This document shows, piece by piece, positions 16,253-44,201 of a stretch of DNA of 52,949 nt. A program made the position numbers and the translations under genes. Under the pieces are notes generated by a model. The model had not been told where the DNA came from and did no database searches. It saw only the letters and a program-made list of their open reading frames with translations. How positions within the stretch are numbered: position 1 is the first letter of the stretch; the number at the start of each line of letters is the position of its first letter. Source of the stretch: a virus (lineage: Duplodnaviria; Caudoviricetes); IMG/VR virus record IMGVR_UViG_3300045120_000139, positions 1 through 52,949 of that record; one strand, given 5' to 3'.

Positions 16253-19200
16253 TTAGTTGACGCCAACGAAGATCTGACGGCCGCCCGCGGTGTTGCGGTT
16301 GACCGTAGAACGGCCAATTCCGCCGCGGAGGTAGGAATTCAGTTCGCGAAGTTCCTTCACCAAGTCGCTCTGGCCGGTCTTGGTACCATCGCCTACAGCC
16401 TGTGCGAGCTCACGCGACGATCCCGGACCGGCGACAGAGTTCGGGCCGCCCAACTTCCCGGCGCTCGCCAGAGGCACGGAGGGGATGGCTCCGAGCTGGC
16501 TGATGTCATACGGCAGCGTCTTGCCCTGAAGCGTTGCGAGGATGTCTTGCAAGAGTCCGGTCTGTTCGTCGCCCTGAGCCGACATCGTCGTGAGCGCAGC
16601 CGCCTGCTTCGTGGCCGCATCGATCTGCTTCGTGACCTGGTCCGCAGTGGTACCCAGCGTCTTAGCGAGCTGGTCAGGCGTCAGTCCGAATTGCTTCAAT
16701 ACTTCCGCGGTCGATTTTCCGGAAGCGAAGGCGAAGTCGCCAATCTTCTGGATCAGGTCGTAAGCTGCCGAGGCTTGGCCTGCCTGAGTCGCCGCGGCCT
16801 GTGCCTGAAGCGCGGCCTTGTTGTTCGCGACCACGTTGATGTTGTTCGGGCCATCGCCGAGCATGGGCGCGCCGTAGATCGCCGCCACGTCTTGCTGTAT
16901 GCCTGCGGAGAGCTTCGCCAGCGCCTGTCCTACAGCGAGCGAGCCCTGCGCCATGATACGAGCTAGGTCTTCCTGCGATGCCCCCGCAAGCCCCGCTGCT
17001 TTGGCCAGCTGATTCGCGGTGTCGATCTGCTGCTGCTCAGCAGAGACGATGCTGGCGAACGAGGAAATGAAGTCATCCCCATAGAGCTGCATTTCGAACT
17101 GAGCATACTTCTGCTTCGCCGCCACGATCTGGCTAGCCGAATCCGTCACAGCGGACGTATAGGTCGCCAGTGCAGCGCCGGCCGCATACCACTGCTCGAG
17201 CTGTTCAGGTGTAAGCGTCGGCAGCGCGGCAAGGAAATCAGCCTTGAACTGCGCCATAGATTCAAGCGGGTTCTCGCCGATCTTGCCGAGCGCGGAGTCG
17301 GATGCTTTCTTGAGAGACGCTTGGTTGGCGGCAGCAAGTTCGGCAGGGCTGAAGAACGCCTGATTGAACGTCTGCACCATCTGCGCGAGGTTCTGTACTC
17401 CCCCAGCAGCATTCGCAACGCCATCAGCGAAGGTGACAAACGCTGCGCCGGTCTTGCCAAGGTCAACGCCGGTCAGTGCCAGCGCGTCCCGCATGATCGC
17501 GGATTCTTGACCGAGCCTGGCGTAGGTATCGACAAGCTTCTCGCCGCCCTGTTGGAGGTCGGTGACGATCTTGGCGATGTCTGTCAGCGTTCCGCCGTCA
17601 CCAAGCAGGTTGATCCCCTGATTGATGTCGGCCGTAGCGGTGACGAGGAAGTTTGCGCCTTCCATCAAAAGGTCGGCACTGCCACGCCATTGCTCAGCAA
17701 TCGCGCTAGCGGCCTTTCCGGCCTCAGACGCCGCGACCGTAGCGACAATGGCTTCAGCGGAGATGCGTGTTGCAGCAAGTTCCTGCGAGGCTTCCTCGTA
17801 CTTCTTGCCGAGGATGTCCACCACATACTTCGTGGAAGTGACCTTGCCCTTCTTGTCGTAGGTATTGACGATGTCGAGCGCTGCTTGGATGACTGGCGGA
17901 ACTTCCGTCTGCATCTTGTGCGCAGCCGCGACCATGATCTTCTGGACTGAGTCGAATAGCTGCTGTGCGGCGTCCTGCGCGTCCTTTCCTGGATCCACAG
18001 TCTTGTTGCGATACTTCGTGCCGGAGAACAGCGCGCCCTGCTTGGACTGGCTCAGGAAGGCAGTGGCGTCTCCACCACCAGCGCCGATGCTAAGTGAAGT
18101 CGTACTTCCCTTCGTAGACCATGCCGTGCCGAACAGCTTGCCGCCACTGAACTTGTCGATCAGCATGGCCGCTATAGCGATCCAGCCGACAACCGGGATA
18201 GCCGCAAGACCTGCACTCAGTCCACCAGCAAGCGCTGCACTCACGCCAGCTCCGGCGAAGTAGGTTCCTACGCCGTAGGCAAGACCGCCGGCAACGCCCG
18301 CCGCACCACCGCCGGCAGCCTTGAACTCATTGACCCCGGCGAATACGCCACCTGCAACACCGATGCCCTGACCCAGCGCGGAACCATATCCGCCATAGTT
18401 CAATCCACCGATCGAGGCGCCGGCTTGAGAACCAGCGAAAGCTCCGGCGCCTGTATAGCCTTGCGCAACGGAGCCCGTAAACGCGCCAGCGCCGCCAGCG
18501 CCTGCAGCAAATCCTGTGGCCGTGCTGCCGCCAAAGAATCCGTTCCAGAGATTCTTCCCTGCGCTCAGCCATGACGATGGCGAGAACAATTGGAACCCAC
18601 CGCCAGCGGCGCTTCCAGTCGCGCCTACGCTGCCACCGCTCAGAACTTGCTGCGAGCCGCCGCTGTTGATCAGCGCATTGACAGCTCCTCCTGTCCCACC
18701 ACCTCCACCGAAGGCCGTGTTCGCCATCGTCGGAAGCAACTGGAACCCGGCGCCCATACCCTGCTGGCTGCCAAAGATCGAGTTGAGAATCGGATTGATG
18801 ATTGCAAGCTTGGCGAAATAAGCAATGATCTGCTCGACGGTTTGCTTGGCAAGGTCTTTCAATCCCTTCATCAAAGAACCGCCGTTTACAAGAACCTTGG
18901 CGAAGGTGTCTGCGATTCCATTGCCTGCGGTAACCCAGATGGACTGCCAGCCCTTTGCTGCTTCGGTGTTTAGCTCAAAAGCTTTCTTCTGATCGTATAG
19001 ACCAGCCGTAACGCCAGCAATGCGATCCTGCGTTGTCTTGAGCGTTGGATTGAGGATGCCAAGTTTTGTGTAATCTGCTTGCTGGGCTTCGGTCAGGTTA
19101 TCCCACCACTTGACCTGCTCCTGAATCGCCTGTGTGATTTCTTTCTGGCGATCTGTCAAACCAATGAGCGACTCTTCATCCTTAACCTTGTCGAGGTATT

Positions 19201-20764
19201 TTTGGACGGAATCATTTTGCTTGACGAATTCTTTCGTCTCTTCCTGCAGAGCCTTGACGTTCGCCTGAGTCTTGGCGATGAGGTTGGCCTTGGCGCGAGC
19301 CAGGTCATCGGCCTGCTTGCCAGACTTAGCGGCAAGGTCGAGCTCGTGCTGATAGGCGTCATTCGCTGCAATGATGTTCTTGATGTAATCGCCATACATC
19401 TTCTGCAGCGGGCCGAGTTTGCCTCCGAGCTGCGCGATGATCTCGGCATCCTTGGCGAATGCCATGTTCAACTGCTCGTGTGCTTTCGCTGCGGCATCTG
19501 CCGCGGCTGCATTCGCAATTAGCGGCGCAGCGGCTTCCTTTGTTGACTTCCCTACGTGATCTGCGCCCTTCGCGGTCTTTTCTAGGCCATCGAACAGCGC
19601 ATCAGAAGCTGCGGTCGCATTCGCAAATGCCTGAGTCCATCCACCGCCTACCGCGTCAGTGATTTTCGCACGCGCTGCGGCAAAACGCTCACCAATGCCA
19701 GCCACGCGCGCTTTAAGCTCGGCGTCGGCTGCATCCATCCCCGCTTTGTCGAGATGGAAGGCTGCAGTCAGACTCTTTCGCGTGCTTTCGGCAAAAGCGT
19801 CGATGAGCTGCCCAGCTGCGCTAAATGTTTCCTTTACAGCGTCATAGAATCCGACGATGGTCTGCACGACCGCACTGATAATCTCCTTGGCTGCGATCAG
19901 CGCCAGGACAAGATATTTCGCACCATTGGCGACAGTCGTGGCGCTGTCGTTGTAGCCATCGGCCGTCTTGCCAGCCTCCACCCATGAATCACTGAGCCTA
20001 TCTAGCGACGGCAGCAATTGAGCTACAACGGCATTCGCGAATCCCTTGGCTTCTATGCCGAGCTTCGACAGATTGTCGTTGAATTGCTCGGCCTGCTTTG
20101 CTGTTTGCGTGGAAATGACCGCGCCGAACTTCTCCGCCTCTTCGCGCGCTCCTGCGAATCCTTGCTTTCCAAGGTCGTTGAGAAAAGGAATCAAATTGGC
20201 GCCGGATTTTCCGAAGAAGGCCTGCGCGTCTGCGGTCTTAGTAATGCTTGCGCCGTAGCTTGCGAATTTCCCAGCAGTATCGCCAAGCAAATCCTGCATC
20301 GAGCGAACATTGCCATTGGCGTCTTTCACAGATACGCCGATTGCCTTGAACGCTGCTGCGGCTTCTTTGTTCCCTCCGGCAGCCTGAGCTGCGATCTTGG
20401 AGAACTTCTCCATACCGCCCTGTAGGTCTTCCATGCTGACGTTAGCCAGCTTCGCAGTCACGCTCAATGAAGACAATGACTCGACGGACAGACCTATTTT
20501 CTGGGATGCCTTTCCAAGCTGGTCCGCCGTCTCAATCGCCTGCTTGCCGAACTCCAGCATCTTGTCGATGGCGAACGCAGCAGCGACCTTCCCGGCGATG
20601 TCCTTGAGGCCGTCGCCAATGCCATCAACTGCGCCCTGGATGCTGCGCTTGATCTGATTCGCGCGCTGGTCAGCCAGCCGCTGTGCCTTGGTGAACGCGT
20701 CTTCGAACTTCGCGTAGTCCAGCACCATGTCATAAGTAAAACTTCCAAGCTGTGCACCGGCCAT
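16253..20764 (-). CDS. Tail tape measure protein
   Basis: 1503 aa, Ala/Gly-rich and helical, after the tail chaperones. Confidence 0.93.
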   Translation of the reverse strand: MAGAQLGSFTYDMVLDYAKFEDAFTKAQRLADQRANQIKRSIQGAVDGIGDGLKDIAGKVAAAFAIDKMLEFGKQAIETADQLGKASQKIGLSVESLSSLSVTAKLANVSMEDLQGGMEKFSKIAAQAAGGNKEAAAAFKAIGVSVKDANGNVRSMQDLLGDTAGKFASYGASITKTADAQAFFGKSGANLIPFLNDLGKQGFAGAREEAEKFGAVISTQTAKQAEQFNDNLSKLGIEAKGFANAVVAQLLPSLDRLSDSWVEAGKTADGYNDSATTVANGAKYLVLALIAAKEIISAVVQTIVGFYDAVKETFSAAGQLIDAFAESTRKSLTAAFHLDKAGMDAADAELKARVAGIGERFAAARAKITDAVGGGWTQAFANATAASDALFDGLEKTAKGADHVGKSTKEAAAPLIANAAAADAAAKAHEQLNMAFAKDAEIIAQLGGKLGPLQKMYGDYIKNIIAANDAYQHELDLAAKSGKQADDLARAKANLIAKTQANVKALQEETKEFVKQNDSVQKYLDKVKDEESLIGLTDRQKEITQAIQEQVKWWDNLTEAQQADYTKLGILNPTLKTTQDRIAGVTAGLYDQKKAFELNTEAAKGWQSIWVTAGNGIADTFAKVLVNGGSLMKGLKDLAKQTVEQIIAYFAKLAIINPILNSIFGSQQGMGAGFQLLPTMANTAFGGGGGTGGAVNALINSGGSQQVLSGGSVGATGSAAGGGFQLFSPSSWLSAGKNLWNGFFGGSTATGFAAGAGGAGAFTGSVAQGYTGAGAFAGSQAGASIGGLNYGGYGSALGQGIGVAGGVFAGVNEFKAAGGGAAGVAGGLAYGVGTYFAGAGVSAALAGGLSAGLAAIPVVGWIAIAAMLIDKFSGGKLFGTAWSTKGSTTSLSIGAGGGDATAFLSQSKQGALFSGTKYRNKTVDPGKDAQDAAQQLFDSVQKIMVAAAHKMQTEVPPVIQAALDIVNTYDKKGKVTSTKYVVDILGKKYEEASQELAATRISAEAIVATVAASEAGKAASAIAEQWRGSADLLMEGANFLVTATADINQGINLLGDGGTLTDIAKIVTDLQQGGEKLVDTYARLGQESAIMRDALALTGVDLGKTGAAFVTFADGVANAAGGVQNLAQMVQTFNQAFFSPAELAAANQASLKKASDSALGKIGENPLESMAQFKADFLAALPTLTPEQLEQWYAAGAALATYTSAVTDSASQIVAAKQKYAQFEMQLYGDDFISSFASIVSAEQQQIDTANQLAKAAGLAGASQEDLARIMAQGSLAVGQALAKLSAGIQQDVAAIYGAPMLGDGPNNINVVANNKAALQAQAAATQAGQASAAYDLIQKIGDFAFASGKSTAEVLKQFGLTPDQLAKTLGTTADQVTKQIDAATKQAAALTTMSAQGDEQTGLLQDILATLQGKTLPYDISQLGAIPSVPLASAGKLGGPNSVAGPGSSRELAQAVGDGTKTGQSDLVKELRELNSYLRGGIGRSTVNRNTAGGRQIFVGVN

Positions 20765-21250
20765 TTATTTAGCTCCAGCCTGTTTTGCTGCGCGATCGAT
20801 TCCAGCCTTCAGCTTGTCGCCCACGATCTTGATAAGCTGCGGCTGCACGACTTGAATGGCGGGGCGGAAGAACGGACGTGCGGCCATCTTTGATGTGCCG
20901 TACTCCAAGAACTTCCAATAGAATGGGTTGTCTGCGAAGGTCAACTCGACGCCAGCCTTTGCGGCACGGCGGAGCAAGCGCTTGACCTTGCGAGCTATCT
21001 TGATCTTGCGAACGAGCACAGAGTAATGGACGGTTGCGCCGATTCTCTGCGGCTGTCGATCGCGATAGGTGATGATGTTGTTGCGCAGGTTTCCCGTGCG
21101 CATAGGTGCATGCGCTACGACTTCTGATTGCAACGCCTTTGCTCCGGCGAACACAGCGCCATTGAGCACCGTCTTTTTGATCTTGTCGGATAGCTGATTG
21201 AGCTGGCGCTTCATCTCTTCGATGCCAGTCAATTTAACGGTCGAGGCCAA
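20765..21250 (-). CDS. HK97 gp10-family neck/tail completion protein
   Basis: APMRTGNLR, FYWKFLEYGTSKMAARPFFRPA. Confidence 0.9.
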   Translation of the reverse strand: MASTVKLTGIEEMKRQLNQLSDKIKKTVLNGAVFAGAKALQSEVVAHAPMRTGNLRNNIITYRDRQPQRIGATVHYSVLVRKIKIARKVKRLLRRAAKAGVELTFADNPFYWKFLEYGTSKMAARPFFRPAIQVVQPQLIKIVGDKLKAGIDRAAKQAGAK

Positions 21251-21299
21251 GGCTATGCTCCGAAAAGAAAGGCCGCTGGAGCAAGCGGCCTTGAGGTAA

Positions 21300-21608
21300 C
21301 TACCATTCACCAAGAAGCAAGTCGTCGATGTGACCTTCTTCCTCGCCTTGATCCTTGAACAGCATGCAATCCTGCATCGATAGCTTTCGCCCTGACTTAG
21401 GATCGGCGTTGATGTTGATCAGGGATGAATGCAGGTAGGCGACCGGCATCTGGAAGTTGCTGCGGTCGTCAATCGGGCTGATGGTTGCGAAATAAAGGAA
21501 CTCGGAAGCGTCGCGATGCGTCAGCTTGCGCTTCGCCTCACGCGGGGTGAGCCCGGTTCTGACGAACAAGGCCCACCAGACGAACTCCGAGCCCTCTACG
21601 CGTTTTTT
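21300..21608 (-). CDS. Tail assembly chaperone frameshift extension (gpT-like)
   Basis: In the -1 frame relative to the upstream chaperone, open from the slippery site. Confidence 0.8.
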   Translation of the reverse strand, partial: KKRVEGSEFVWWALFVRTGLTPREAKRKLTHRDASEFLYFATISPIDDRSNFQMPVAYLHSSLININADPKSGRKLSMQDCMLFKDQGEEEGHIDDLLLGEW

Positions 21609-22718: not shown

Positions 22719-23099
22719 CTAATTTTCACGGGCTATGAAGAACTCCGCGTCCAGGCTCCAGCGGAATAACTTCGTGTCAGGCTCGAACAATGGTTCCGGG
22801 CCGCGCACTACATGCGTCACACCTTCCATTGCCGCCAAGGCGCGTTCGGACAGAATCCGCGCGCTTGTCTGGAATGCCGAATAGCAGTCGATCTGCACGA
22901 GTTGATCATCATCGTCAGGTGGGTCAGATAGGTTGTTATTCGGGATGCTGCTGATGATGCTCCACACGATGTAGCTGAGCTGATTTCCGCTGGCGTCCTT
23001 GGTCTTGCTCTCATCCAGCACGATCTGCTGGAAGATACGCTCGCCAACCAACTCCGTTACGCCGCCCCAGTTCTCCAAGGTCTGCTGTACCGGAGGCAT
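22719..23099 (-). CDS. Tail terminator (DUF3168-like)
   Basis: LVGERIF, YIVW, VQIDCY, FEPDTKLFR. Confidence 0.85.
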   Translation of the reverse strand: MPPVQQTLENWGGVTELVGERIFQQIVLDESKTKDASGNQLSYIVWSIISSIPNNNLSDPPDDDDQLVQIDCYSAFQTSARILSERALAAMEGVTHVVRGPEPLFEPDTKLFRWSLDAEFFIAREN

Positions 23100-27054: not shown

Positions 27055-27588
27055 TCAGATGGATTCGATATGAAACGGACCGCGAACACCGCCACTGTGC
27101 GCTTCTGCAGCTGCAAGGGCTGCCTTGATGCGCTCCCGCGCCGGCATATCGCTCAGTGCATGCAAGGCGCCATGCGCAATGTCCATACCGCAGCCGCAGG
27201 CCGCATATTTCGCGGCGTTCTCTCCGACTTGGTAGTCCTCGCAAATGTTGAACAGCCTGCCGGCGTACCCTATCAAAAATTCGCCCGCCGACTCCTTTTC
27301 ATTTTCCTTCTTCGCGTAGCCAGCAGACTTCAGGCATGCGCGCAAGGCATCGATGAAATCAGTGACCATGAAATGCATTACGTCCTTTTCAACTGGACGC
27401 TTCGGCGGAGTGAATCCATACGCCAGAATCTGACCCATTCGAAATGAGGTCGTGAAACCGATCAAGAATTCGCCGTTCTTGAATACCTTCCTGTCCGTGC
27501 GAACCTGCAAAGTCCATCCTGCAAGACCAGCGCTATCGCCACCGATCCAAACCTTACCTTTATCTGCAACGCCAACAATTGCCGTCAT
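27055..27588 (-). CDS. HslV/proteasome-like Ntn peptidase
   Basis: MTAIVG (Thr nucleophile), GGDS, KVF, ACGCG, GVRGPF. Confidence 0.8.
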   Translation of the reverse strand: MTAIVGVADKGKVWIGGDSAGLAGWTLQVRTDRKVFKNGEFLIGFTTSFRMGQILAYGFTPPKRPVEKDVMHFMVTDFIDALRACLKSAGYAKKENEKESAGEFLIGYAGRLFNICEDYQVGENAAKYAACGCGMDIAHGALHALSDMPARERIKAALAAAEAHSGGVRGPFHIESI

Positions 27589-27636
27589 GTTGCTCACCTT
27601 GCCGTGAGTAAGCGGGCGAATGCGTCGCCCGACCAT

Positions 27637-27667
27637 AAAAATAAAAAGGCCACCCGGAGATGGCCTT
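27637..27667 (-). terminator. Intrinsic terminator
   Basis: AAGGCCA-TCTCCGGG-TGGCCTT followed by TTTATTTTT. Confidence 0.8.
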
Positions 27668-27788
27668 GCGCTCTCCCCGCGTTGACGGGGAACCGATTAT
27701 CTCTAGATGCCCTGCCGTGCGATCAGGGGCGTTTTCCTCGGTCTATACACACGTACGCTAACAACAAGATGTTCGCGGCGGAGCGCAA
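27637..27788 (-). ncRNA. Candidate structured ncRNA or attenuator leader
   Basis: Closing stem TTGCGCTC..CCGCG / CGCGG..GAGCGCAA, with internal stems, between a promoter and a terminator. Confidence 0.5.
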
Positions 27789-27793
27789 TTACA

Positions 27794-27821
27794 ATTATAT
27801 ACCTATACCAGAGCTAAGCAA
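27794..27821 (-). promoter_or_regulatory. Sigma70-like promoter
   Basis: TTGCTT-16 bp-TATAAT in an AT-rich patch. Confidence 0.6.
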
Positions 27822-28517
27822 CCTTTCGAAGGCTAGGCCGCTGCGAATCTCGGAATGAGTGGATTGCCCCCATGCCAAACACCTCAGCATCGCAAGGCGC
27901 CCTTCGTCCGTGTTCTCGCAAGCCGCAATCCAGTAGCGCTGGTGCGACTCTACCGGGATGCCCCATATCAACGCCAGAACCGCAGCACCGCTGCCCCACG
28001 TCACGACGCGCCCGCATTGCGCCAAGTCCTCGCGGAGCGGCTTGGAGTTCGTGTTGCGGCCTGGGTGCGCCCTGATGCGGCCACGCTGGCGCTGCGGCCA
28101 ATCGCCCGGCATGCGGTATGCAGCCGGACCTATGCCGCGAGATGCCAGAACAACGGTCTCGCCCTCAGTCCGCCACGGCTCAAGTTCAACGCCGAGCGAA
28201 TCGAAGCGGTCAGGACCGAGATCCGGAAACGTCCCCGCGACATTGTGGAAATTCCTTGTTAGCGTGTACCACTCGCGGCCGGCGAACGAATTGCCCCAGG
28301 TCGCGTTCTCTGTCACCAGCACAGTGTTGCCACGCTCCGTGAAGATGCGCGCAACCGTGTCGCCTTCATGGATGCGATTCCATGTGCAGAGTATGTCGCC
28401 GGGCTCAGGCGCATGCGTCATGCCGTCAACGACTTCGTAGCCGAGCCTGCGCAGCCCTTTCGTGAACATCGCGCGCCGTTCTGGAACGGTAAAACGGAGA
28501 TTCAGGTATGCGCGCAT
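27795..28517 (-). CDS. GT-B glycosyltransferase, KpsS/KpsC-like (second paralog)
   Basis: IRAHP, VVTWGSGAAVLALIWGIPV, LAWGQ. Confidence 0.7.
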   Translation of the reverse strand: MRAYLNLRFTVPERRAMFTKGLRRLGYEVVDGMTHAPEPGDILCTWNRIHEGDTVARIFTERGNTVLVTENATWGNSFAGREWYTLTRNFHNVAGTFPDLGPDRFDSLGVELEPWRTEGETVVLASRGIGPAAYRMPGDWPQRQRGRIRAHPGRNTNSKPLREDLAQCGRVVTWGSGAAVLALIWGIPVESHQRYWIAACENTDEGRLAMLRCLAWGQSTHSEIRSGLAFERLLSSGIGI

Positions 28518-28868
28518 TCAACCACGATTTATCAATGCAATCGCCGGAATGCTCATCCAATCCAACCCAGTCTCAGGATCGCGTATCGGCGGCGCAAGGT
28601 TGAATATCGTTCCGTCCACCCCGTTGATCACATGCACCGCGCGCATGCTCGCCTTGATGGCCGAGTTGTAGCGCATGATGATCACGGTCGTGCTTTCCGA
28701 GGCAACCTGCTCGCTGGCGAGAAGATCGCGCGCGCTCAATGGGCGAATTTCAGCCCAGAACGTATCGAGTTCTTCCCATTCAACATCCGTCTCGCCGAAG
28801 CTGTTCTTCGTCTGGACTTGCTGCTCAACGCGGATGCGATGACGCAAGCGCCCTGCAAGCAGTTTCAC
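28518..28868 (-). CDS. Head closure/head-tail adaptor (SPP1 gp16-like)
   Basis: AGRLRHRI, WAEIRPLSARD, MRY. Confidence 0.9.
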   Translation of the reverse strand: MKLLAGRLRHRIRVEQQVQTKNSFGETDVEWEELDTFWAEIRPLSARDLLASEQVASESTTVIIMRYNSAIKASMRAVHVINGVDGTIFNLAPPIRDPETGLDWMSIPAIALINRG

Positions 28869-29254
28869 CAGCGCCACCAGCAACGGCGAGTCTTGAGCTT
28901 GGCGTACTCCGCATCCGTGACGCCGCATGTCGGTACGCGGTATGGGTAAAGCAACGCCGAAACAGGACGCGGCAAAAACCCCAACTCGTATTCGTGCCCG
29001 CCATCTTCGTCGCGCTGCCGATCGAAATATCCGATAAGCATCAGCGTGGCGATCTGCACATCTTCCGGGACGTCGATCGCAATACCGGCACTGTCCTCCG
29101 GAATCTCCCCAGACGACTCCGCGAACGATGGCGATTTCAGATAGGTGACTACTGCGCGCGACGCGGCCTTCACCTTCAGCAAGATGTCGTTGTCTCCATC
29201 CGTTGTATCTACGCGCAGATGCTCCCTTGCCTGCTGAAGCGTGACGAGCATCAT
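28865..29254 (-). CDS. Head-tail connector (HK97 gp6-like)
   Basis: LVTLQQAREHLRVD, VPEDVQIATLML, LLYPYR. Confidence 0.9.
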   Translation of the reverse strand: MMLVTLQQAREHLRVDTTDGDNDILLKVKAASRAVVTYLKSPSFAESSGEIPEDSAGIAIDVPEDVQIATLMLIGYFDRQRDEDGGHEYELGFLPRPVSALLYPYRVPTCGVTDAEYAKLKTRRCWWRW

Positions 29255-29942: not shown

Positions 29943-32030
29943 TTAGTTCTCGGTGTAGACAGAGATCGATTCCACACCGATCGTGGCGTCGCCAGCGGTG
30001 GTGTTGGCCGTTCCGTTCGACATCAGGACCGCATATCCGAGAGCCGTGGTGTTGACTGGCAAGTCCGTGTTCGTGCATGTGTCGACCAGCGTCGTTGCCT
30101 GAATAAGATCATCGAGCCTGTAACAAATCTGTGTGTCGTTTGGATATGCATGAATGTAGGCGATGAACGCAGTGTTGTTCGTGGCAAGCGTTGCCTGCCC
30201 GCCAATCGCATCCTTGGTGGCTGTGCCGCTTCCATCGTTGTGGCAGAACGTCCAAGCCGTATCGCCGAGATCAAAGCAGAACCCCGCAATATTCACCAGC
30301 GAGGAAGGATTTCCGGTTACCGTGTTCGCTCCGGCGGTCGATGGCTGCATCCCGACAAAACCGCGCATGCCTGTCTTGATCGAGGTGAAGCCGAACCGCG
30401 TGATCTCCATGAACCCGCCGACGCCCGCAGCATTACCGCGGAAGTGAGAGAACGCCCCCTCGCGCATCCCCACTTGCTGATTCTGCGTCGTCACCACCGA
30501 AGCGAATGTGCTTCGCTTCATCGTGGTGTATCTGTTCGTAATCGTTGGGGTGGGTGAGGCGGCCGTTCCGGCTTGTGAGTTCGGCACGCCGTACACCAAT
30601 CCAGCGGCGCCGCCTGTAGCCATCCATCCGCTCTTGAAACCACCCGCCTCCGGGAATTCCAAATATCGCGGGACGCCTAGTTGTCCGACATCGCAAAGTG
30701 TTTCGCGACCGGAGAGTTTGCAAGCCTGGAACGTGGTGTTGCTGGCCGCCGGCGCCGATTGAATTGCAGCGGTTGCCATCACCAGCGACGGTGTAGATGA
30801 CAGTGTCTGCGCTCCCGTGATCGTCGGCGTCGCAATCGTCGGACTCGTGCCGAGCACGACGGAATTGCTGCCAGTGGTGCCGTTTGTTAGATCGGAGGCG
30901 GCCAGCGTCTGAGTGCCACCGAGCGCCACGGAATGACCGGCGATGGTCATCGACGAGTTGCTGAGCGTCGCGTTCGGAATAGCGCTCAGCGTCAGCACAC
31001 CAGAGCTGGAAAGCGTTGCGGTTGCGCCCGAACCACTTACTGTAACCGGCGCGTATGCTGTGCCGCCTGCATTGCCTGCGAGGATTTGACCAGCGCTCGG
31101 TGCCGTATTCGGAACGATCGCGGCCTTGGTCTGCGCGTCATTGGTTACGTTGCCTAGCACCGAACCGCCCAGGGCTGTTGACGTTCCGCCGATGGTGATG
31201 GACGAATTCGCAAGGTCCGCGTTCGCCACGGTCGCGCACGTCGGCACAGCGCTGCTGTTGATGGAACGAACGAACTGCGTGGTGCAGGTTCCGCCCGGCG
31301 TGTTGCCGTTGACCTTGGCGACCGTGGGGCCGGGATAGCTTCCGGACAGGTCGCCGCTTGCTGAGCCGTTCGGCGGCAAGGACGTTGCCGAGCACCCGGT
31401 CGCGCCGTTGGACAGGTCAGCGCACGCCGCCTGCGAGACGACGCCGGAGCCGTTGCCCTTGAGCGCGCCCGTGATTGTGCCCGCACCGCCGCGTGCTGCT
31501 GCGAGCGTGCCGCTGCCGATGTTCGAAGCGTTGGTCGCGTCCGTCGCGCAACTGGCCGAGGCATCGGAGAGATCGCCACACGCCGGCTGCGCAGCTGCAG
31601 GAACGCCGCTGGTACTGATCGAGGTAAGGAAGTTGTGCGATACCGCCGTCTTCGACTGCACGCCACCCAGCGACGACGACGACGGATTCGGCAGCCGCGC
31701 CGCGCCAAGCGTGCCGGAACTGATGTTGCTGGCGTTCGTGGTATCGGTCGTGGCGCTGGCAGCAAACGCGACGCCATTGGTCTTGGTGCAAGTCAGCACG
31801 CCAGAGCCGCCGGGCGTGGTGCAGTCGCCGCTGAGCGGCGCCAGCATGGTCAGGTCGAGATAGCCGAGCGGGTTGATTAGCGGCACCTTGGCCGCGTCTC
31901 CAGCGCCTGCGCTCGTGTCCTTGGCCGCGACGAGCCCATGATTCGGCGGGTTGCTGGTGACTAGTGTATTGGTCGCCGCACCGGCTGAAATGGAAATCAG
32001 CAGCGCGAGCAGTGCATGGAATCGCATCAT
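29943..32030 (-). CDS. Repeat-rich S/T/A/G fibre-like protein with a signal-peptide-like N-terminus
   Basis: 695 aa; repeats TNASNIxSGTLxAAR, CxDLS, NxxLxNSSxTI; globular C-terminus. Confidence 0.75.
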
Positions 32031-32923
32031 GGAATCGGACCATCAGGGGTTTGAGTACGGAGATTCAAAACCGTTGCGCTCAATGCGTCGCCGAGGACGC
32101 AGATGTAGTTTCCGGAACCTGGAACGGCGGCAGTCAGGAATCCGGCCGTGGCCGCGCTGAGATAATATGTTCCAGCGCTCAGCCCGCCAACCTCTCCAGA
32201 GACAACCGCGTCCCATTGAGCCGTGGGAAGGCTCACTGCGCCGCCAATCTGTATTGAACCGGTTGCGCCAGCGACAATCGACACATCAGCCACCAGCCCA
32301 CAGACGCGAATGGTATTGACCGAATTTGCTCGAGCACGCTTCACTACGCCTGCGGCACTGATGTAAACGGCCATGCCAGCGGTCAGAGTAACGCTGTCGC
32401 CATTCTGCATCTGCACGAAGAACTGCGATGGTCCGGCAGCGCCTGTTGGGCCTGGCGGTCCGGTTGGGCCAGTGGATCCGGATATGTTGACGTCTCCAGC
32501 TCCGACGCTGGCGACTACTCCGCCATTCAGGCCTTGCGGGCCGCGCAGATCTACCGCCAACCCCCAAGTTCCATCGGGGTTCTGAAATTGCAGCTTTGTG
32601 CCTAGCCAGCGATGCGCAGGGATTGGCCCTTGCGGTCCCTGCGGACCTTCTGGGCCTCGCTCTCCGACAGCGCCGGCCGGACCAGGAGCGCCGCGCGCTC
32701 CTGTCTGACCTTTCTCGCCTACCTCGCCACGGAGGCCACGCGGACCGCCCGGAGGGCCTTGCTCGCCACGCGGGCCAGGGTCGCCCTTGGGGCCGCGCTC
32801 GCCGCGGTCTCCACGGTCGCCCTTGCTGCCAATCTCGCCCTGCAGGCCAGACCTGCCGCGCAGCACTTCCCGTTTTTCTACGCAAATCTCACTGATGAGA
32901 CGCGTAAGCTGGCGCTCATCCAT
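32027..32923 (-). CDS. Collagen-like protein with C-terminal capsid decoration/head-fibre-like domain
   Basis: Long G-X-Y run; TAGMAVYIS...GTYYLS...VLGDALSAT. Confidence 0.8.
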
Positions 32924-33323
32924 TCACTTCGGCCTCGAGCGCGGAACGAAATTCGGCGAGATCGAAGCCGAACTCGCCCGGATCACCTTTCTCGCCCTTC
33001 TCACCGCGTTCACCTGACAGGCCGCGCGGACCGGCATCACCTGGTTCACCTTGTAGGCCGCGCTCGCCAATAGCGCCGCGGTCTCCGCGTTCTCCGGTGT
33101 CCCCACGTTCGCCCTGTGGACCGATAAGGCCGTCCAGCCCATCCTTGCCGTCGATTCCGTCTCGTCCTTCCTTGCCCGCAGGAATGGCCTTGATGGCTTC
33201 CTGCCATTCCAAACGCGCAGCCGAGAGACCGCTGTCAATGCGACTGGCAAGTTCATCAAGTGCAGGCTGAACAAAACCGCGAACCTGTTTCATTACCACC
33301 AAGGCAAATTGCGAAATGTCCAT
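32916..33323 (-). CDS. Collagen-like protein
   Basis: About 22 G-X-Y triplets after an N-terminal helix. Confidence 0.8.
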
Positions 33324-34756
33324 CAGGCGGCCTTCGAATGGATTGGCGCGGGAAGTGAAAGAGGCGCGATGCTGGCCGTCACAAGTTCGAACTCCGCCTC
33401 AAGTATGTCGACAGTGATTGCCTTGGCCGGAGGTGCTTGCGCCGGATCCGCTGTAGCTGGTGAGCCATCAGCGGATGGCGTTGGGTTCGAAGTTGGCCGA
33501 TCGATCACAAACGGGTTATCCAACGAGTCGCGCTTCGAAAGGGCTTTGAGGCTGAAATTCTGCTGCTGAAGGTACGGCGTATCGCCGCCCGCAGCCTTCC
33601 GGAGGCCGAGTTTCTTACGCGCATCGTTCGGCGCCAGCATGCCGCGCGCAACACCCTCGCCAAGGGTATTCATCTGAGTCTTCTGATCCATGCGCAGCAA
33701 GGCGTCTGTGTCCAGAAGAATGTCGTACGGGTCTTTGATTCCCAAGCCTTCCTCAAGCAGTTGCTCCATCTTCTCGATAAGCGTCTGCAGGCAGTCGCTC
33801 AGATATTGCTGGTTCAGGGCTTCAATGTTGTCGTAGCTCGGCATGGTTCCAACACCGACCTTGTGCGGCGGCATCTGGAAAACCGTGCAGACCTGAAGGT
33901 CGGACATCTTGAGTTGTTCGATCATCTGCGCATCCACGCTGCTCATTGTGAGCTGCGTGAATTTCAGACCGTCGCCGAGGATGGCGACCTTTCCTGCGTT
34001 CTCGCCCGTATATCCAGCGTTGAACTTCTTCTTCAATTCCGAGGCTTGCTCGTCGCCAATGTTTCCAGGCGCCGTGATGATGCCGCTGATTTTTGCACCG
34101 TTGAGATAGAAGCGGGCCGAGTTCTTTTCGATCTCCAGTCCCACAGCCGCAGGCAGTGCAGCTGCGAAAAGCGGCGAAATGCCTATCAACGGATGGAATA
34201 GGCAGTTCATTCGGTCATGGATGATCTCTGACGCCGGAACCACGACAGACTCCGGAAGCTCAGAAATGTTGTCTGCCGAGAGCTGGTAGAAAATAGACCC
34301 GTCAGTCGCCACAAGAGGCTGCACGCGAAGCGGATTCAGCACATGCAGCGCCGTGACCACGCCACGGTTGTCTCTCTGCTTGAGAACAAACGTGTTGCCA
34401 GTGCGCAGCTTGCTGATGATCCATGACTCTTTGAAGTCGATATGGGTCTGGAACGAATTCGGCTTGTTCAGTACCGGAGAAAATGCCGGGCTGGTGGTTT
34501 CCTCGTAGACGTCATCCTCGACTTCGGCAACCAGCATCAAAGCCATCTTCCCGATGTCTGACGAGATGCGCGTGATGCAGGCAAAAACTGCGGTATGTGA
34601 GAGCGCGGTCTCCGGGCTGCATTCCAGATTGCGCTGCCACGCTCCGCCGAAAGGTTCGCGTACTACTGGGAACCACCCACCCCCGCCGAATACGTTGGAC
34701 ATCCAGTTCGGCGCATTCTTCTTCGAACGCGTTATTTCCAGCCCGAAGAAACGCAT
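33323..34756 (-). CDS. Portal protein, HK97 family
   Basis: [39 protein letters not shown]; likely start ATG 34756. Confidence 0.95.
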
Positions 34757-34980
34757 CAGCTTGTGGCCGTGGTCATCACGCGGCGGCGATAGGGACGCTT
34801 CGCACGTTCTGCCATAACGCCCGCGAGTGCAGTTTGAGTCTCGGCGTGCGCAGGAGCGCGCTCGCACCAGCCAAGCGCTTCGGCGATCTTTGCCGAGTCT
34901 TCGTCTGCCTCGTAAATGTCGCCGGGAGATTTCTGTCGCTGGTTCATCGTGTGACGAACCAAGGTCTTCATTCGTGCCAT
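34756..34980 (-). CDS. Small post-capsid protein
   Basis: GGAG RBS; PGDIYE...YRRR. Confidence 0.65.
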   Translation of the reverse strand: MARMKTLVRHTMNQRQKSPGDIYEADEDSAKIAEALGWCERAPAHAETQTALAGVMAERAKRPYRRRVMTTATS

Positions 34981-35047
34981 GTGAAACTCCAAAAGAGGCG
35001 CCCGGTTTCCCAGGCGCCTTTCCAACCACAAACTCACTGAGAAACGG

Positions 35048-36508
35048 TTAGACCGGGAATCCGCCCCAGTGCACGCCGGTCAGGTAGAACGCGGCCTGGC
35101 TGCGCGCTGCTTTCCAATTTATCCAGCGCTCCGCCCTTAACGCCACCGAGTTCGTCTGGAACATCGAGACCAGCGAAGCGCCGGTACCGGTCGCCGACGA
35201 GTTCGACGGCGCATCGGACATTTCCAGCGAAGCCTCGCGGCTGGCATCGACCGCCACCTGGCCGTCATCAGCCAGAAGGACGTCGTCTTGCTTGAGCAAC
35301 ACCACGATGTGCGCGCCGTCCGAAGCGCCCACGATGCCCGCGGCGTTCGACACGATGATCGGCAGGCCTTCCAGCACGCCGCCGTTGATGTCGACGCCAG
35401 GGAACACCTTGTTGCCCAGCGAGTTCACCATCAGGCCGAGCGCCATCGCGGTGACCGGCGACATGATCCACACGCAGTTCACTGGCGTTTGATTGCCAGA
35501 AATAAACGGCGCGAATGCCGTCATGATGTCGGTTGCGATGCCGGCCTGCGTGTTCGTGCCAGTGGCTACGGCAGTCGCCGCACCATTGGTGATCGATGCC
35601 GGCTTGATGATGCCGGAACCCGCGTTCGCAGGATCGATGAAGTCGCTGTCGAGCTGCTGCACGATGGCCGCTGCGAGGTCATTGCGGACCAGCATGTCGG
35701 CCCCCGGTGTGGACAGACGCAGCGTTTCGTCCGTAATCACCGTGATCGCTGCGATCTTGGTGAAGTCGAGCAGCACAGTGTCGAACGCCTGCGAGGTCAG
35801 CGGCTTGGCTTTGCCTTCACCAACCCATCCTGCCGTTCCGCCACCCGTCTGACGCTTTACGCGAACTTTGAACGGAACGCGACGAACCGCCGTCAGCTTG
35901 CCGATGATTGTCTGCGGACGCAGGAACTCGATGAACTCGCTGGCGAGGTCCTGATACTGGACCAGGGCGCCGGCAAATGCCGAGTTCGACGTGAGGGCTG
36001 CGTCGACCGTGGCCTTCTCGATGAACTGCGTCGACTGGCCTTGGCCGAAATGCATCTTGATGATGTTGTGCAGCGGCGTCTCTTCGGGATAGAGCGACTT
36101 GGCCTGTTCGAAAGCATCTCGAGCATTGCCGTTGCTCATCGCCATGAGTTTCACGAACCGCGTAAAGCCGATGCCGGGCGGCAGCTTCTTCTCGACAGCA
36201 ACCACGCGCTGATGGCCGGCGCGCGCGTCGCGTTCCTGGTTCGCTTTCCGCGCGGCGACGATCGGGTCTTCATCCGTCTCGACGGTGATCTTGGTAGCCG
36301 TCGAAGCAAGAAGCTTCTCTGACTTCGCCAGACGCGCCAGATGCGTGTCGATCGTTTCGATTTCCTTCTCGATCGCGTCGTATTCCTCGGCCGCTTTCGC
36401 GTCCAGAGTTTCGCCGTCGACCTCGGACTTTTCGAGCAGCACCTTGAGGGCCGCTGCCTTGACCGCACGTGCGTCGGTGAAGGACTTGATCTGACCTTGG
36501 ATGTTCAT
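35048..36508 (-). CDS. Major capsid protein, HK97 fold
   Basis: Coiled-coil delta domain, EFIEFLRP, WVGEG, KIAA, WIMSP, LEGLP, SMFQTN, RAER. Confidence 0.95.
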   Translation of the reverse strand: MNIQGQIKSFTDARAVKAAALKVLLEKSEVDGETLDAKAAEEYDAIEKEIETIDTHLARLAKSEKLLASTATKITVETDEDPIVAARKANQERDARAGHQRVVAVEKKLPPGIGFTRFVKLMAMSNGNARDAFEQAKSLYPEETPLHNIIKMHFGQGQSTQFIEKATVDAALTSNSAFAGALVQYQDLASEFIEFLRPQTIIGKLTAVRRVPFKVRVKRQTGGGTAGWVGEGKAKPLTSQAFDTVLLDFTKIAAITVITDETLRLSTPGADMLVRNDLAAAIVQQLDSDFIDPANAGSGIIKPASITNGAATAVATGTNTQAGIATDIMTAFAPFISGNQTPVNCVWIMSPVTAMALGLMVNSLGNKVFPGVDINGGVLEGLPIIVSNAAGIVGASDGAHIVVLLKQDDVLLADDGQVAVDASREASLEMSDAPSNSSATGTGASLVSMFQTNSVALRAERWINWKAARSQAAFYLTGVHWGGFPV

Positions 36509-37131
36509 GTCTCTGCCTTTGGTAGGGGGATGTCAGCAAGGCGGACGACGCCAGCCTTGGATTTGCCCGCGACGCCGGGCGAGAGACGCACAACACCAGC
36601 AGCAGGTTTGCCAGACGCGGCGCGCTGCTTGGAGTCAAGCGATTTGATGGTTTGAATGGTGCAGTCGGAGTTGCACGGTATCGTCACGACGGACAATTCC
36701 ATGACCTCGGTTTCGTTGAACTTGATGCCGCCGGTTTCCAGGAATTCCATTGCGTTGTTAACCGCGCGGAACCCGATGGACAGGCCGGCTACGAGCTTGT
36801 ACTTGATCGACTGTACAGCCTCATTGATTCGATCCTGAAGAATCCCTGCCTCTTTGACTTTTGGGATTGCCGCAGTGATTGGAATGCCGGACTTCGTGGC
36901 CTTCGCATTCGTGACGTTGCCGATCGGTGAGCGGGAATCGTGCTGCCACAGAAGCGGCAACGGTAGAGCGAACTTCGCTCCCATCGGGTCGATGATATCG
37001 CCGAGACGGTCAGGCGTCGGGGTAGTTGCAAGCCCGGTGATGTAGTAATTGTTCTCGTCCTCTGTGAAGGCACGGATGTCGATCTTCGAATATCCGCGTG
37101 TGATCACTTCAGGACTGGTTTCGGTTTGCAT
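36505..37131 (-). CDS. HK97-family prohead protease
   Basis: DRLGD, LLWQHD, PIG, GLSIGF, ELSVVTIPCN. Confidence 0.95.
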   Translation of the reverse strand: MQTETSPEVITRGYSKIDIRAFTEDENNYYITGLATTPTPDRLGDIIDPMGAKFALPLPLLWQHDSRSPIGNVTNAKATKSGIPITAAIPKVKEAGILQDRINEAVQSIKYKLVAGLSIGFRAVNNAMEFLETGGIKFNETEVMELSVVTIPCNSDCTIQTIKSLDSKQRAASGKPAAGVVRLSPGVAGKSKAGVVRLADIPLPKAET

Positions 37132-37141
37132 CTCAAAACTC

Positions 37142-38809
37142 CTATACCCAAACGCAGTTGTATGTTTTCTTCTGCGGCGCAGGATTCAGCGACATCAGCG
37201 TCACTGCATCGAATGTCGCCATCAGCGGATCGATTTTGGCGGAGCCAGAAATCTGCTTCGTGATCATGATGGCATTGCCGCGAGGCTCGACCTTCGCGTT
37301 TCCTACGCACCACGCCATCAGGCTCGACGCACAATGCACGAACTGACCCTCGGCCAATTTCCGCTCAGTGGTCTTGATGGCTCCGACCATCTTCCAGCCC
37401 TGAGGGATTCCGACGATGCGCTCAATCGAAATGCCGATACCAACCAAGGCGTCCATGATCGAACCGAGCTCTGCCTGGTCAACTCCGACGCGCTCGAGCA
37501 ATCCAGCGTCCTCGCACTGCTTGATGCGCGCAACAAGATGCTCGATGTCGTCGCCGATCTTTTTAACGATCGTGAGTTCGCCGAGTTTTTCGAAATCCCG
37601 GAAGCGCGCTGCTTCCTTTTTTCTGCGCTGCAGCACAATCGGGTGAATCCAGGCATGCGCCCAATGCAGCCACAATCCGGTCTTAGCCTCCCTGCCAACT
37701 ACCGATAGCCCTAGCATGTCGTCTAGGCCGCCACCATCGATCCCTGCGGTGACCACCTCGCAACGTGCCAGCAATCCTTCGAGTGTTAGACCGACCTCTG
37801 CCTGACACTCCCAGAAGTCGCTACCGGCCCAACCGTTCGAATGCAGCGACAGACCGATCTCGACATTCAGGTGCTTGGCCAGGAAGCCACGGACAGACTC
37901 TTCGCCGGACTCCTCGGCCTTCATCAGCTCGCGCTGCAGGAACTCCTCATCGACTGAGGCGCCGAGGTTAGGATTCGTGATGTAGGCGTTCGCCAGATCC
38001 CGGCACGACTCGTCCTCAATCATGGCCTTCGGGAACTCGTAAATCACTGGCAGGAATCGCTTATCGGCTATCCGCCCGTCCCTGACGCCGCGGGCATAGT
38101 CCAGCTTCTGCTTGAATACGCCTGCCGGCGCTTCATCTGACTCGGTGGTCAGGTAGATCACGAACCCTTCGGGCCGAGATGCCAATCCGCCCGTTGCCTC
38201 ACGGAGCATGTTCTCGGCATTTGCACGCTTTCCGAACAGCCAAAGCTCATCGATCAGGACGCCAATGGCCTTCTTGCCACCGACCGCTTCGCTATCCGCA
38301 GCGATAACCTTGAGCGTCGCGCCAGTCGTTCGATGCGTGATGGTGCGGTAGTGTTCCTGCACATGCATTAGGTCGGACAATTCCTCATCCGACTTGACCA
38401 TGTCCCGTGCTGGAAAGAACGAATTGTTCGCCGTCTCGATGGTTGGCGCCAGAATGATGAACTCGCCGGACATCCTCCAGTTCAGGATCAGCGCCGTCAG
38501 CATGATGCCAGCGGCAGTGGTCGACTTCGAATTCTTCTTTGCCATGCAAAGCAGGAACTCGCGGATCAAGCGCCGACCCGATTCGGCATCGTAGGAACCA
38601 AACACCGCCGCCACGAAATCAAGTAGCCATTCCCTGCTTATGGCGCCCATCTTCGGGCTTCCAGCCACATCCACAACGCAGAGCTCGCGGAAAACCTTCA
38701 GCGCGATGTCTGCCTGGTCCTGAAATAGCGGCGGGAAGGTGATGAGCGAGCGCCGCTCAACAACCCGCTGCTCCCAGTCCAAGCAAGCAGTTGACCACGC
38801 TGGAATCAT
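37142..38809 (-). CDS. terL: Terminase large subunit
   Basis: AKKNSKST Walker A, LIDELW Walker B, GIDGGGLDD, KIDP. Confidence 0.96.
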   Translation of the reverse strand: MIPAWSTACLDWEQRVVERRSLITFPPLFQDQADIALKVFRELCVVDVAGSPKMGAISREWLLDFVAAVFGSYDAESGRRLIREFLLCMAKKNSKSTTAAGIMLTALILNWRMSGEFIILAPTIETANNSFFPARDMVKSDEELSDLMHVQEHYRTITHRTTGATLKVIAADSEAVGGKKAIGVLIDELWLFGKRANAENMLREATGGLASRPEGFVIYLTTESDEAPAGVFKQKLDYARGVRDGRIADKRFLPVIYEFPKAMIEDESCRDLANAYITNPNLGASVDEEFLQRELMKAEESGEESVRGFLAKHLNVEIGLSLHSNGWAGSDFWECQAEVGLTLEGLLARCEVVTAGIDGGGLDDMLGLSVVGREAKTGLWLHWAHAWIHPIVLQRRKKEAARFRDFEKLGELTIVKKIGDDIEHLVARIKQCEDAGLLERVGVDQAELGSIMDALVGIGISIERIVGIPQGWKMVGAIKTTERKLAEGQFVHCASSLMAWCVGNAKVEPRGNAIMITKQISGSAKIDPLMATFDAVTLMSLNPAPQKKTYNCVWV

Positions 38810-39117
38810 TTCACCGCGACAAGCTTCGGGGGAGCGATCGGTGCGAACTTGCCCTTCGCAACCTCGCTCGCCGCATCAGCCTGCTCACCCTTCTTGCCGA
38901 CTTCCTTCTTCGAGCGCTTCTGATGGGCCAAAAGCTTCACCGCCGCCTCTTGGCGTAGCCTGAAATCGATAGACTTGTCCCGCATAGAAGCCTTCAGGAA
39001 CGCCACAGGATCGTCGGTGTCGAAATCATCGGACTCCACCATGACCGCCTGCCTGGGTGCGCCTGAGTTTGGCCGTGGGCCGCCGTGCGGGGGTTTTTCA
39101 GCCTTGCCAGCCATCAT
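38806..39117 (-). CDS. terS: Terminase small subunit
   Basis: HGGPRPNSG; directly upstream of terL. Confidence 0.8.
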   Translation of the reverse strand: MMAGKAEKPPHGGPRPNSGAPRQAVMVESDDFDTDDPVAFLKASMRDKSIDFRLRQEAAVKLLAHQKRSKKEVGKKGEQADAASEVAKGKFAPIAPPKLVAVK

Positions 39118-39119
39118 GG

Positions 39120-39228
39120 TTGCCGTAGGGAGGGAAAATTTTGTGTAAATTAGTAGCTACGCGGATTCGGTGAGGCCAACCGAAAAGGTTGAGAAGTCCC
39201 CCCGGTATCCTGTTGAAACAATTGAATA
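39120..39228. other. Probable cos packaging region
   Basis: Non-coding gap between HNH and terS with a G6 run and AAAATTTTCCC; position matches HK97-type cos phages; cut site not determined. Confidence 0.5.
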
Positions 39229-39576
39229 TCACCAACGCAAACTCGCGCCGATCTCTGCGTTCTCTCGCTTGGTCTTGCGCTTATGGCACTCGATGAGAAG
39301 CGTCTGCAAGTTGCTGTCGTCCTCAGTGCCGCCTTCACTGAGTGGCACTCTGTGATCGACTTCAAGCTGACGCTCTGTGCCGATCCGATTGCATCCGCAC
39401 TGGCAAGTGAAGCGGTCACGCAGTTTGATCCTGAAGTTGCGCTTCTGGAGGGCTTCCCCACTCATGCGCTTCGGGGATAGGTTGTTCTTCGCCCACGGGC
39501 CCGTCGGTTGCTGGCTGAGTCTTGATTGGAGCGGCTGAATCGTCCGTTCCAGCCGCGTTGGCCGTAGCTTCTCCAT
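39229..39576 (-). CDS. Terminase-associated HNH endonuclease (HK97 gp74-like)
   Basis: RDRFTCQ, EVDHRVPL, NLQTL, CHKRKT. Confidence 0.9.
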   Translation of the reverse strand: MEKLRPTRLERTIQPLQSRLSQQPTGPWAKNNLSPKRMSGEALQKRNFRIKLRDRFTCQCGCNRIGTERQLEVDHRVPLSEGGTEDDSNLQTLLIECHKRKTKRENAEIGASLRW

Positions 39577-39741
39577 TCTCAGGCTCCAAAGCTTCGAGTT
39601 GCGAGGCGCAATTCCGAAGCTGCTTAGCTAGCAGGATCATCTGGACTGCCTTGCCCTCTACGCACTTGCGCTTGTAGGCCTTGGCTGTGCGGTCTAGGTC
39701 GTCTGCCTCGGTGCGCCATGCTGCTGCAAGATCAGCAGCAG

Positions 39742-39957
39742 TCATGCAGCTCTACCGACTGCTGCTGTCTCGACGTACTCGCTATCGATGTCCGTGAGAT
39801 CAACCGTGCGTGGCGTTAGGTAGATGATGGCGCGCGCTTGTTTGCCTGCCTCGAGCAGCACCTCAACCTTGCTGATGCCTTTGATACGCTCACCGTTCAC
39901 CGTCACCGCAGTATTACCATTGACGCTGGGACCAACACACTTGATGTCGACGTTCAT
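39742..39957 (-). CDS. Hypothetical protein
   Basis: MNVDIKCVG..., ATGA-coupled. Confidence 0.55.
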   Translation of the reverse strand: MNVDIKCVGPSVNGNTAVTVNGERIKGISKVEVLLEAGKQARAIIYLTPRTVDLTDIDSEYVETAAVGRAA

Positions 39958-42039: not shown

Positions 42040-42048
42040 GGCGTTCTC

Positions 42049-42680: not shown

Positions 42681-42687
42681 TTAGGAT

Positions 42688-44121: not shown

Positions 44122-44146
44122 AAAAGCCCGCTCAATAGGCGGGCTT
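44122..44146 (-). terminator. tR'-like terminator downstream of Q
   Basis: AAGCCCGC-CTATTGA-GCGGGCTT then TTGCATTT. Confidence 0.75.
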
Positions 44147-44201
44147 GTATCGTACTTTGTCAAAAGTAACTCAAACCGTGCGCACTTTCTAGGTTACATT
44201 T

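Follow-up and report, generated by a model that had tools for sequence, protein, structure and literature searches.

A lineage-specific, non-coding insert of ~180 bp appears to occupy a mosaic joint in the late operon of what would be a temperate, lambdoid-type soil phage. We read it, with a probability of about 0.5, as a moron-like promoter/terminator cassette brought in by recombination, in which the terminator would be the functional content and any RNA a by-product. The phage is represented by a 52,949-bp IMG/VR virus record (IMGVR_UViG_3300045120_000139; soil phage; estimated completeness 75%), all of which was analysed and is called the window below. The initial annotation of this DNA had proposed a structured RNA with its own promoter and terminator, or a riboswitch-like attenuator. 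What it had observed is real as far as the motifs and the terminator go, and its elaborate fold is no better than chance. What it had concluded stands for a non-coding promoter-like/terminator unit outside any Rfam family and is not supported for a structured RNA or for an attenuator. The alignments also point to something it had missed: the DNA is peculiar to this lineage and was inserted at a recombination joint, between two diverged ORF-A 3' ends.

The joint between head and tail genes

PHROG matches lay out the late genes as a single long operon on the minus strand, in the order terminase, capsid, portal, adaptor, head closure, ORF-A, insert, peptidase, accessory genes, tail terminator, Neck1 and tape measure. 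The insert lies between the head-completion and the tail genes. Its earlier placement within the late operon is borne out by these matches, with head closure and ORF-A on one side and the peptidase and tail genes on the other.

37142-38809, minus strand: large terminase (PHROG)
36505-35048, minus strand: protease and major head protein (PHROG)
33323-35029, minus strand: portal (PHROG)
28865-29254, minus strand: head-tail adaptor (PHROG)
28518-28928, minus strand: head closure (PHROG, also Pfam Phage_HCP)
27795..28517, minus strand: ORF-A, the last gene ahead of the insert, 240 aa with its stop (ORF list)
27055..27588, minus strand: HslV-like (Ntn-hydrolase type) peptidase gene (phrog_1040, E 3.9e-22)
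22719-23099, minus strand: tail terminator (PHROG)
20765-21313, minus strand: Neck1 (PHROG)
16253-20764, minus strand: tape measure (PHROG)

The order of the head genes is odd in its own right, the portal gene lying downstream of the capsid gene. A 208-aa product encoded at 36505-37131 matches the N-terminus of a major head protein family as well as head maturation protease families, and a 275-aa product encoded at 29251-30078 matches only the C-terminal end of the portal family phrog_1289.

ORF-A gave no family match in Pfam, PHROG or NCBIfam, and its protein relatives reveal how the joint is built. The closest, in loci L016 and L017, are 83% and 73% identical to it, and at the DNA level ORF-A is 77.5% identical to L016. 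Both relatives lead from ORF-A straight to the next gene with no insert; their ORF-A terminates in …ARLL(..)TAR plus a stop, and its last codons also contain the next gene's ribosome-binding site. Three stretches replace this arrangement in the window.

27795..27848, minus strand: 3' end now used by ORF-A (IRSGLAFERLLSSGIGI and stop), a substitute whose homology to the tails of other ORF-A genes reaches to about 27814
27635..27813, minus strand: 179 bp particular to this lineage and without a counterpart in any relative (alignment gap against L016 and L017)
27594..27634, minus strand: remnant of an ORF-A 3' end of the L016 type (…SGDAFARLLTAR and stop), left stranded after the terminator

The two ORF-A ends differ in ancestry. 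Positions 27634-27593 are identical to L016 3671-3712 at 42 of 42 bases and are no longer part of ORF-A; by its sequence, this remnant now does no more than supply the peptidase gene with its ribosome-binding site. The tail now in use matches that of L022 at 30 of 38 bases, resembles L022/L024-type tails in general and uses other synonymous codons than the remnant. Alignments (blastn) of the window to L020, L024 and L022 stop at 27844, 27817 and 27814, respectively, and the last 5-6 codons of ORF-A come from inserted DNA. These comparisons indicate that the joint is a mosaic between two ORF-A lineages with a foreign non-coding piece inside. The stranded 42-nt remnant suggests that the joint is young, so that the mere presence or persistence of the DNA is weak evidence of function.

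The stretch between the two genes is non-coding. From the ORF-A stop to the peptidase ATG it spans 206 nt (27794-27589). The true peptidase start is the ATG at 27588 (MTAIVG…), since all 14 homologues begin M-T-[C/A]; a longer reading frame from 27636 is an artefact of the joint. The invariant start of the peptidase would fit an N-terminal threonine nucleophile. On the minus strand the longest frame in the insert is one of 21 aa with a TTG start (27788-27723), ahead of which no Shine-Dalgarno-like run was seen in the sequence, and the plus-strand frames are Arg/Pro-rich, in keeping with the earlier statement that there is no credible ORF.

Terminator, promoter-like site and fold

Only the intrinsic terminator, of all the motifs listed for this stretch, beats chance. 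Four elements had been described there.

27816..27821, minus strand: -35-like hexamer TTGCTT, matching TTGACA at 3 of 6 bases, inside conserved Leu-Leu codons of ORF-A
27794..27799, minus strand: -10-like hexamer TATAAT, a 6/6 match, holding the ORF-A stop codon (TAA)
27666..27788, minus strand: 123-nt 'core', the proposed multi-way junction, with no ORF and an ordinary folding energy
27635..27667, minus strand: intrinsic terminator, a 9-bp GC-rich stem with a 4-nt loop (27667-27646), then the U-rich tail TTTATTTTTA

The terminator hairpin folds at -15.4 kcal/mol (z -3.52), a stability equalled by just 1 of 200 shuffles, and its pairs form with probabilities of 0.96-1.0 in the full predicted transcript. 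It is the strongest terminator of the late region. As had been described, this GC hairpin with its U tract shares 2 nt with the closing stem of the core, and both coexist in the minimum free energy (MFE) fold. Judged from the sequence, the terminator is the only part of the insert with evidence of function.

The core does not share this distinction. Its closing stem joins TTGCGCTC (27788-27781), 5 bases past TATAAT, to GAGCGCAA (27673-27666), with pair probabilities of 0.74-0.86. These were taken from the ensemble of a 121-nt cut (27789-27669), which stops three bases short of the 3' end of the stem. Two inner helices, ACCGA/TCGGT and GCCC.TG/CAGGGC, appear in the MFE fold, and the stems drawn by eye are therefore where they had been placed. 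The core as a whole reaches an MFE of -43.0 (z -1.14), matched by 26 of 200 shuffles. Set against 2642 windows of equal length taken from the two strands of the genome, the 121-nt cut had a GC-adjusted residual z of +0.05, and 53% of the windows folded as well. Perfect long-range stems of 8 bp or longer turned up in 96 of 1000 dinucleotide shuffles. Over the whole 159 nt the z is -1.88, a value largely owed to the terminator. The multi-way junction is not beyond chance, and the claim of a structured RNA is not supported; stems picked by eye in GC-rich DNA require a control against the genomic background.

Searches for known RNA families agreed with the earlier view that there is none here. Rfam 15 returned no match at gathering score over the whole window. 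With E up to 10 on 451 nt, Phe_leader alone appeared (E 1.4; 18.6 bits against a cut-off of 55), a match to the 3' 69 nt ending in the terminator hairpin (27708-27640), which was rejected. ARAGORN found no tRNA or tmRNA. Other parts of the record fold with unusual stability. The most stable 121-nt window for its GC content lies at 42561-42681 on the plus strand (MFE -57.1, residual z -4.1), and 51669-51801 is unusually stable on both strands and richer in AT (GC 0.42-0.43; residual z -3.9 on the plus strand, -2.8 on the minus strand).

The promoter-like site is present as annotated, TTGCTT-16-TATAAT on the minus strand with a spacer of 16 nt. A relaxed scan for TTGNNN, a spacer of 16-18 nt and at least 5 of the 6 bases of TATAAT returned two sites over both strands of the whole window, this one included, against 5.1 +/- 2.1 expected from block shuffles. 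TATAAT by itself occurs three times (3.4 expected). The site is missing from the list of a stricter promoter scan because TTGCTT fits TTGACA at only 3 of 6 positions. On the question of chance, the site is suggestive.

Any promoter here would be a hybrid of old and new DNA. TTGCTT encodes conserved Leu-Leu codons of ORF-A and is found unchanged in the ORF-A tails of L022 and L019, both of which have no insert; the -10 hexamer lies in inserted DNA. The promoter claimed for the element is a candidate one: a predicted site is there, one of two such in the window, and its -35 belongs to pre-existing ORF-A codons.

Distribution of the insert and its surroundings

The insert is absent from every relative's locus examined. 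None of 21 ORF-A loci with a complete 3' end carries it (18 distinct sequences, since some contigs are present in two collections). These comprise L016, L017, 13 others and 6 further loci; twelve loci were left out as cut before the end of the gene (among them L026, L027, L030-L033, L035, L037, L039, L040 and L051), and the viral loci L041-L043 and L045 duplicate contigs already examined and were not given a second reading. In the 21 loci, as read from the printed sequences, the next ORF begins at the stop or a few tens of bases on. The peptidase homologues gave the same answer, with no similar stretch upstream in any of 14, all of them in unrelated contexts.

Direct searches for the element were likewise negative. 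Five exact patterns drawn from it, including both repeat arms, had no match in IMG/VR, a search from which the window's own record was possibly excluded. The 22-mer of the terminator had no exact match in the species genomes, and contigs of these genomes held no relatives of ORF-A. Comparison of the element with all loci by blastn (word size 7) and tblastx gave chance matches only, and 701 nt gave no match to INPHARED phages by blastn at the distant setting. A covariance model, R1, derived from this one sequence with its fold, recovered nothing but itself in 226,546 bases from 47 sources; against five whole related virus records it found nothing, an empty answer that is uninformative.

One partial likeness came from PLSDB, where the distant setting returned 31 nt at 93.5% identity (29/31) in 101 Ralstonia megaplasmid records. 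An example is L052 601-631, at a spot without annotation in the Ralstonia pseudosolanacearum GMI1000 megaplasmid. We rejected this match as a homologue: only the terminator hairpin is alike and the upstream sequences are unrelated, which probably reflects convergence. As a hint of a betaproteobacterial host, the likeness is at most faint.

The same DNA does recur in soil. Among the contigs of four DNA runs, of which X1 may be the source, the further soil runs X2 (27533-27890) and X3 (27523-27717) carry the stretch without a difference, and no contig has a joint that skips the insert. This identity shows that the lineage recurs, but it offers no variation from which selection or covariation could be read. 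The search for homologues to support the proposed fold by covariation came back empty, with no diverged homologue and two identical copies.

The position after ORF-A is a variable-gene slot. It holds the peptidase in the window, a Cys-rich ORF of ~62 aa in L016 and another small ORF in L017, each coming after the same conserved boundary motif (…TCACGGCAAGGTGA), in which the stop and the ribosome-binding site lie (window 27600-27586, L016 3700-3720, L017 1483-1500). Across the relatives of the cluster that were read (L016, L017, L019-L025, L028, L029, L046-L050), ORF-A is directly followed by an MK.L.TG.G.SGSW protein, by a product that reads as methyltransferase-like, or by other genes. The slot may be a recombination hot spot.

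About eight accessory genes lie between the head-closure and tail-terminator genes (28517-23101, minus strand). They include ORF-A, the HslV-like peptidase, genes for a 281-aa protein that begins MKILFTGRGTSGSW and for one of 245 aa, a methyltransferase-like gene (Pfam Methyltransf_11) and one that is sialyltransferase-like (phrog_4603). When the proteins encoded nearby were searched by sequence in Pfam, NCBIfam and PDB, nothing was gained beyond the PHROG names. Homologues of the peptidase (phrog_1040; L002-L015) occur in scattered contexts, after terminase-like, tail-like and thymidylate-synthase-like genes. The cluster may serve virion or surface modification and, with its variable slot, may be a more interesting lead than the insert itself.

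Readings of the insert and known systems

The layout of the record suggests a phage that is temperate and lambdoid in regulation, as weak family matches and gene order would have it. A Q-like antiterminator gene is assigned by one PHROG match, its product giving nothing usable in Pfam and NCBIfam, and it is followed ~55 nt later by a strong terminator. Toward the end of the record, near 52.8 kb, a TTGACA-N18-TAAATT site lies between the inverted repeats TACTCGCGGGTA and TACCCGCGAGTA.

44202-45029, minus strand: Q-like antiterminator gene (phrog_127, E 1.2e-9)
44146-44124, minus strand: terminator with an 8-bp stem including 6 GC pairs, the only other strong minus-strand terminator among those listed for 32001-52000
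52880-52760: region of the inverted repeats, which on either strand ranks with the window's most stable folds at 121 nt (z about -3.6 to -3.8)

The last of these is probably the operator/promoter region of an immunity switch, and its TTGACA-N18-TAAATT site implies that the host polymerase probably reads sigma-70-type promoters. TTGACA and TTGAGT hexamers stand just upstream of the 44146-44124 terminator, and the stretch 45029-44124 could hold a late promoter with a short terminated leader.

The preferred reading assigns the insert a simple place in this scheme. In lytic growth, polymerase modified by the Q-like antiterminator would pass the terminator, which must be read through at that stage because essential tail genes lie downstream. 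Unmodified polymerase would halt at the hairpin, leaving the downstream genes silent without Q. The hairpin would end transcripts from the hybrid promoter after about 150 nt, together with stray transcription from upstream, and the ~150-nt RNA, if made, would be a by-product with no structure-dependent function. Several considerations weigh against this. The scarcity of promoter-like sites (2 versus 5.1 +/- 2.1) and the right distance of this one to the strongest late terminator favor a real short transcription unit; by our own rough, post hoc estimate, only ~1% of terminators would have a site of this kind within 150 nt by chance. Phages rarely retain useless DNA, which counts against a mere passenger. 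The identity in X2 and X3 shows that the lineage persists. Finally, the Q-like assignment on which the scheme depends comes from a single PHROG match.

The first of these points lends some weight to the main alternative, a tentative one, in which the insert is a moron encoding a trans-acting sRNA of ~150 nt (27788 to about 27640). This RNA would be transcribed from its own promoter in lysogens, stop at the terminator and, through base pairing or decoy action, affect targets in the host or in competing phages. The site has a perfect -10, a TTG in its -35 and a 16-nt spacer, is one of two such in the window, and combines rarity with its spacing from the terminator; the early-region site makes sigma-70-type promoters probably readable in the host. 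Terminators with long U tails are a trait of many Hfq-type sRNAs, and the terminator here is strong and has such a tail. There is no ORF, and lambdoid prophages are known, from the available parts of the literature on them, to bear sRNAs. The arrangement of extra DNA, promoter and terminator is the canonical moron layout in the available part of PMC3594210. The evidence on the other side is that no homologue exists in the collections searched, and hence no evidence of selection; that the -35 predates the insert, in coding sequence already there; that the core has the GC content of the genome (0.58), unlike typical morons; and that complementarity to the phage's own genes is no more than chance, the best that the element showed to other parts of the window being 13/14 nt, with E no lower than 6. 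A more specific version is doubtful. It holds that the stretch would be an orphan sRNA gene of ~150 nt, a protein-free moron between head and tail genes, transcribed in the prophage and acting in trans, for example by regulating host genes or as a decoy for some system of the host or of a rival phage; its fold would be real yet statistically invisible because no relatives have been sequenced. If a ~150-nt RNA is made and active, the insert would be modestly more important, since protein-free morons outside enteric prophages are little documented.

Control in cis is improbable. A riboswitch or attenuator, in which a leader fold sensing a ligand or factor decides the terminator and so gates the peptidase and downstream transferase genes, would suit the position directly upstream of the peptidase gene and a terminator that follows the foldable stretch at once, with 2 nt shared. 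It would need a competing fold, and none appeared: when the 3' arm of the terminator is blocked, which costs 12 kcal/mol, the 5' arm stays unpaired and the remaining fold keeps its shape. Since the 5' arm finds no other partner, an antiterminator is lacking and a riboswitch is unlikely, all the more with terminator probabilities of 0.96-1.0. No Rfam aptamer matched at E up to 10, where Phe_leader at E 1.4 stood alone, and the element is absent at all 14 peptidase homologues and all 21 ORF-A loci. A conditional stop would also gate virion assembly, given the tail genes downstream. The earlier idea of an attenuator gating the peptidase and GT genes is not supported on these grounds: the lack of a competing fold, an overlap of just 2 nt and no similar sequence upstream of any of the 14 peptidase homologues.

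Equally hard to credit is a MITE-like remnant of a mobile element with the 'closing stem' as its terminal inverted repeats. Imperfect inverted repeats of 8 + 5 bp do bracket about 107 bp, and the DNA is an insertion relative to all kin. The window holds a single copy, exact patterns that included both repeat arms found no other copy in IMG/VR (in bacterial genomes the copy search covered the terminator 22-mer), no target-site duplication is seen at the repeat ends, and a long-range repeat of 8 bp arises in about 10% of shuffles. Least credible is a very small protein from the 21-aa frame at 27788-27723. In its favor, the TTG that opens the frame coincides with the predicted transcript start, and the middle of the peptide is hydrophobic; against it stand the lack of any Shine-Dalgarno-like run, a hydrophobic run of only ~13 residues and the absence of tblastx relatives.

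The preferred reading, a recombination-borne cassette, places the insert beside the morons of lambdoid phages, which were first named in HK97 and HK022. With a sigma-70-like promoter ~150 nt upstream of a terminator and no ORF, the stretch would have the layout of a moron without a protein gene. The available part of PMC3594210 defines a moron as extra DNA in a phage operon with its own promoter and terminator. Measured against that text, the insert is DNA extra to related phages at the same spot (0/21 loci), lies in the late structural operon and has a promoter-like site at one end and, as judged by sequence and energy, a terminator of its own at the other. It differs from morons in having no protein gene, in a -35 that lies in the neighbouring gene, in being known from sequence alone and in its base composition, which is that of the genome (0.58 for the core versus 0.57-0.60 in neighbouring 2-kb windows) except for ~25 AT-rich bases at the left edge (27813-27789; about 28% GC by manual count).

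Short terminated transcripts are also familiar from the late promoters of such phages. The lambda 6S RNA at tR' is one, and the insert would similarly give a short non-coding RNA set by a promoter and an intrinsic terminator. StxS of Stx phages is another: in the available part of PMC7547250, it is a short non-coding RNA from a constitutive late promoter, with an intrinsic terminator that Q-modified polymerase overrides. Both lambda 6S and StxS come directly after the Q gene, unlike the insert, which lies 16 kb further down the operon; the phage's own Q-adjacent site is the terminator at 44146-44124.

Prophage sRNAs offer a third comparison. DicF, the anti-sRNAs AgvB/AsxR and svsR are, in the available excerpts of their descriptions, conserved among related prophages and have transcripts and targets shown. 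As far as those excerpts go, the insert shares their size class, lack of an ORF, U-tail terminator and prophage setting, and it differs from them in having no homologue and in being known as DNA.

Novel joints in mosaic phage genomes arise by illegitimate or short-homology recombination at gene boundaries, and the insert shares several of their features. Relatedness shifts abruptly at the gene end, from 77.5% to 42/42, leftovers of a displaced gene end remain, and a variable slot follows a conserved boundary motif. Unlike usual mosaic joints, this one also carries a complete terminator and a promoter-like site. As it stands it is a routine example of mosaicism: midway through a late operon, a recombination joint left behind a terminator, a putative hybrid promoter and the stranded end of a gene. 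Mosaic joints and moron-like cassettes are both known already, and this stretch would be a further case of both.
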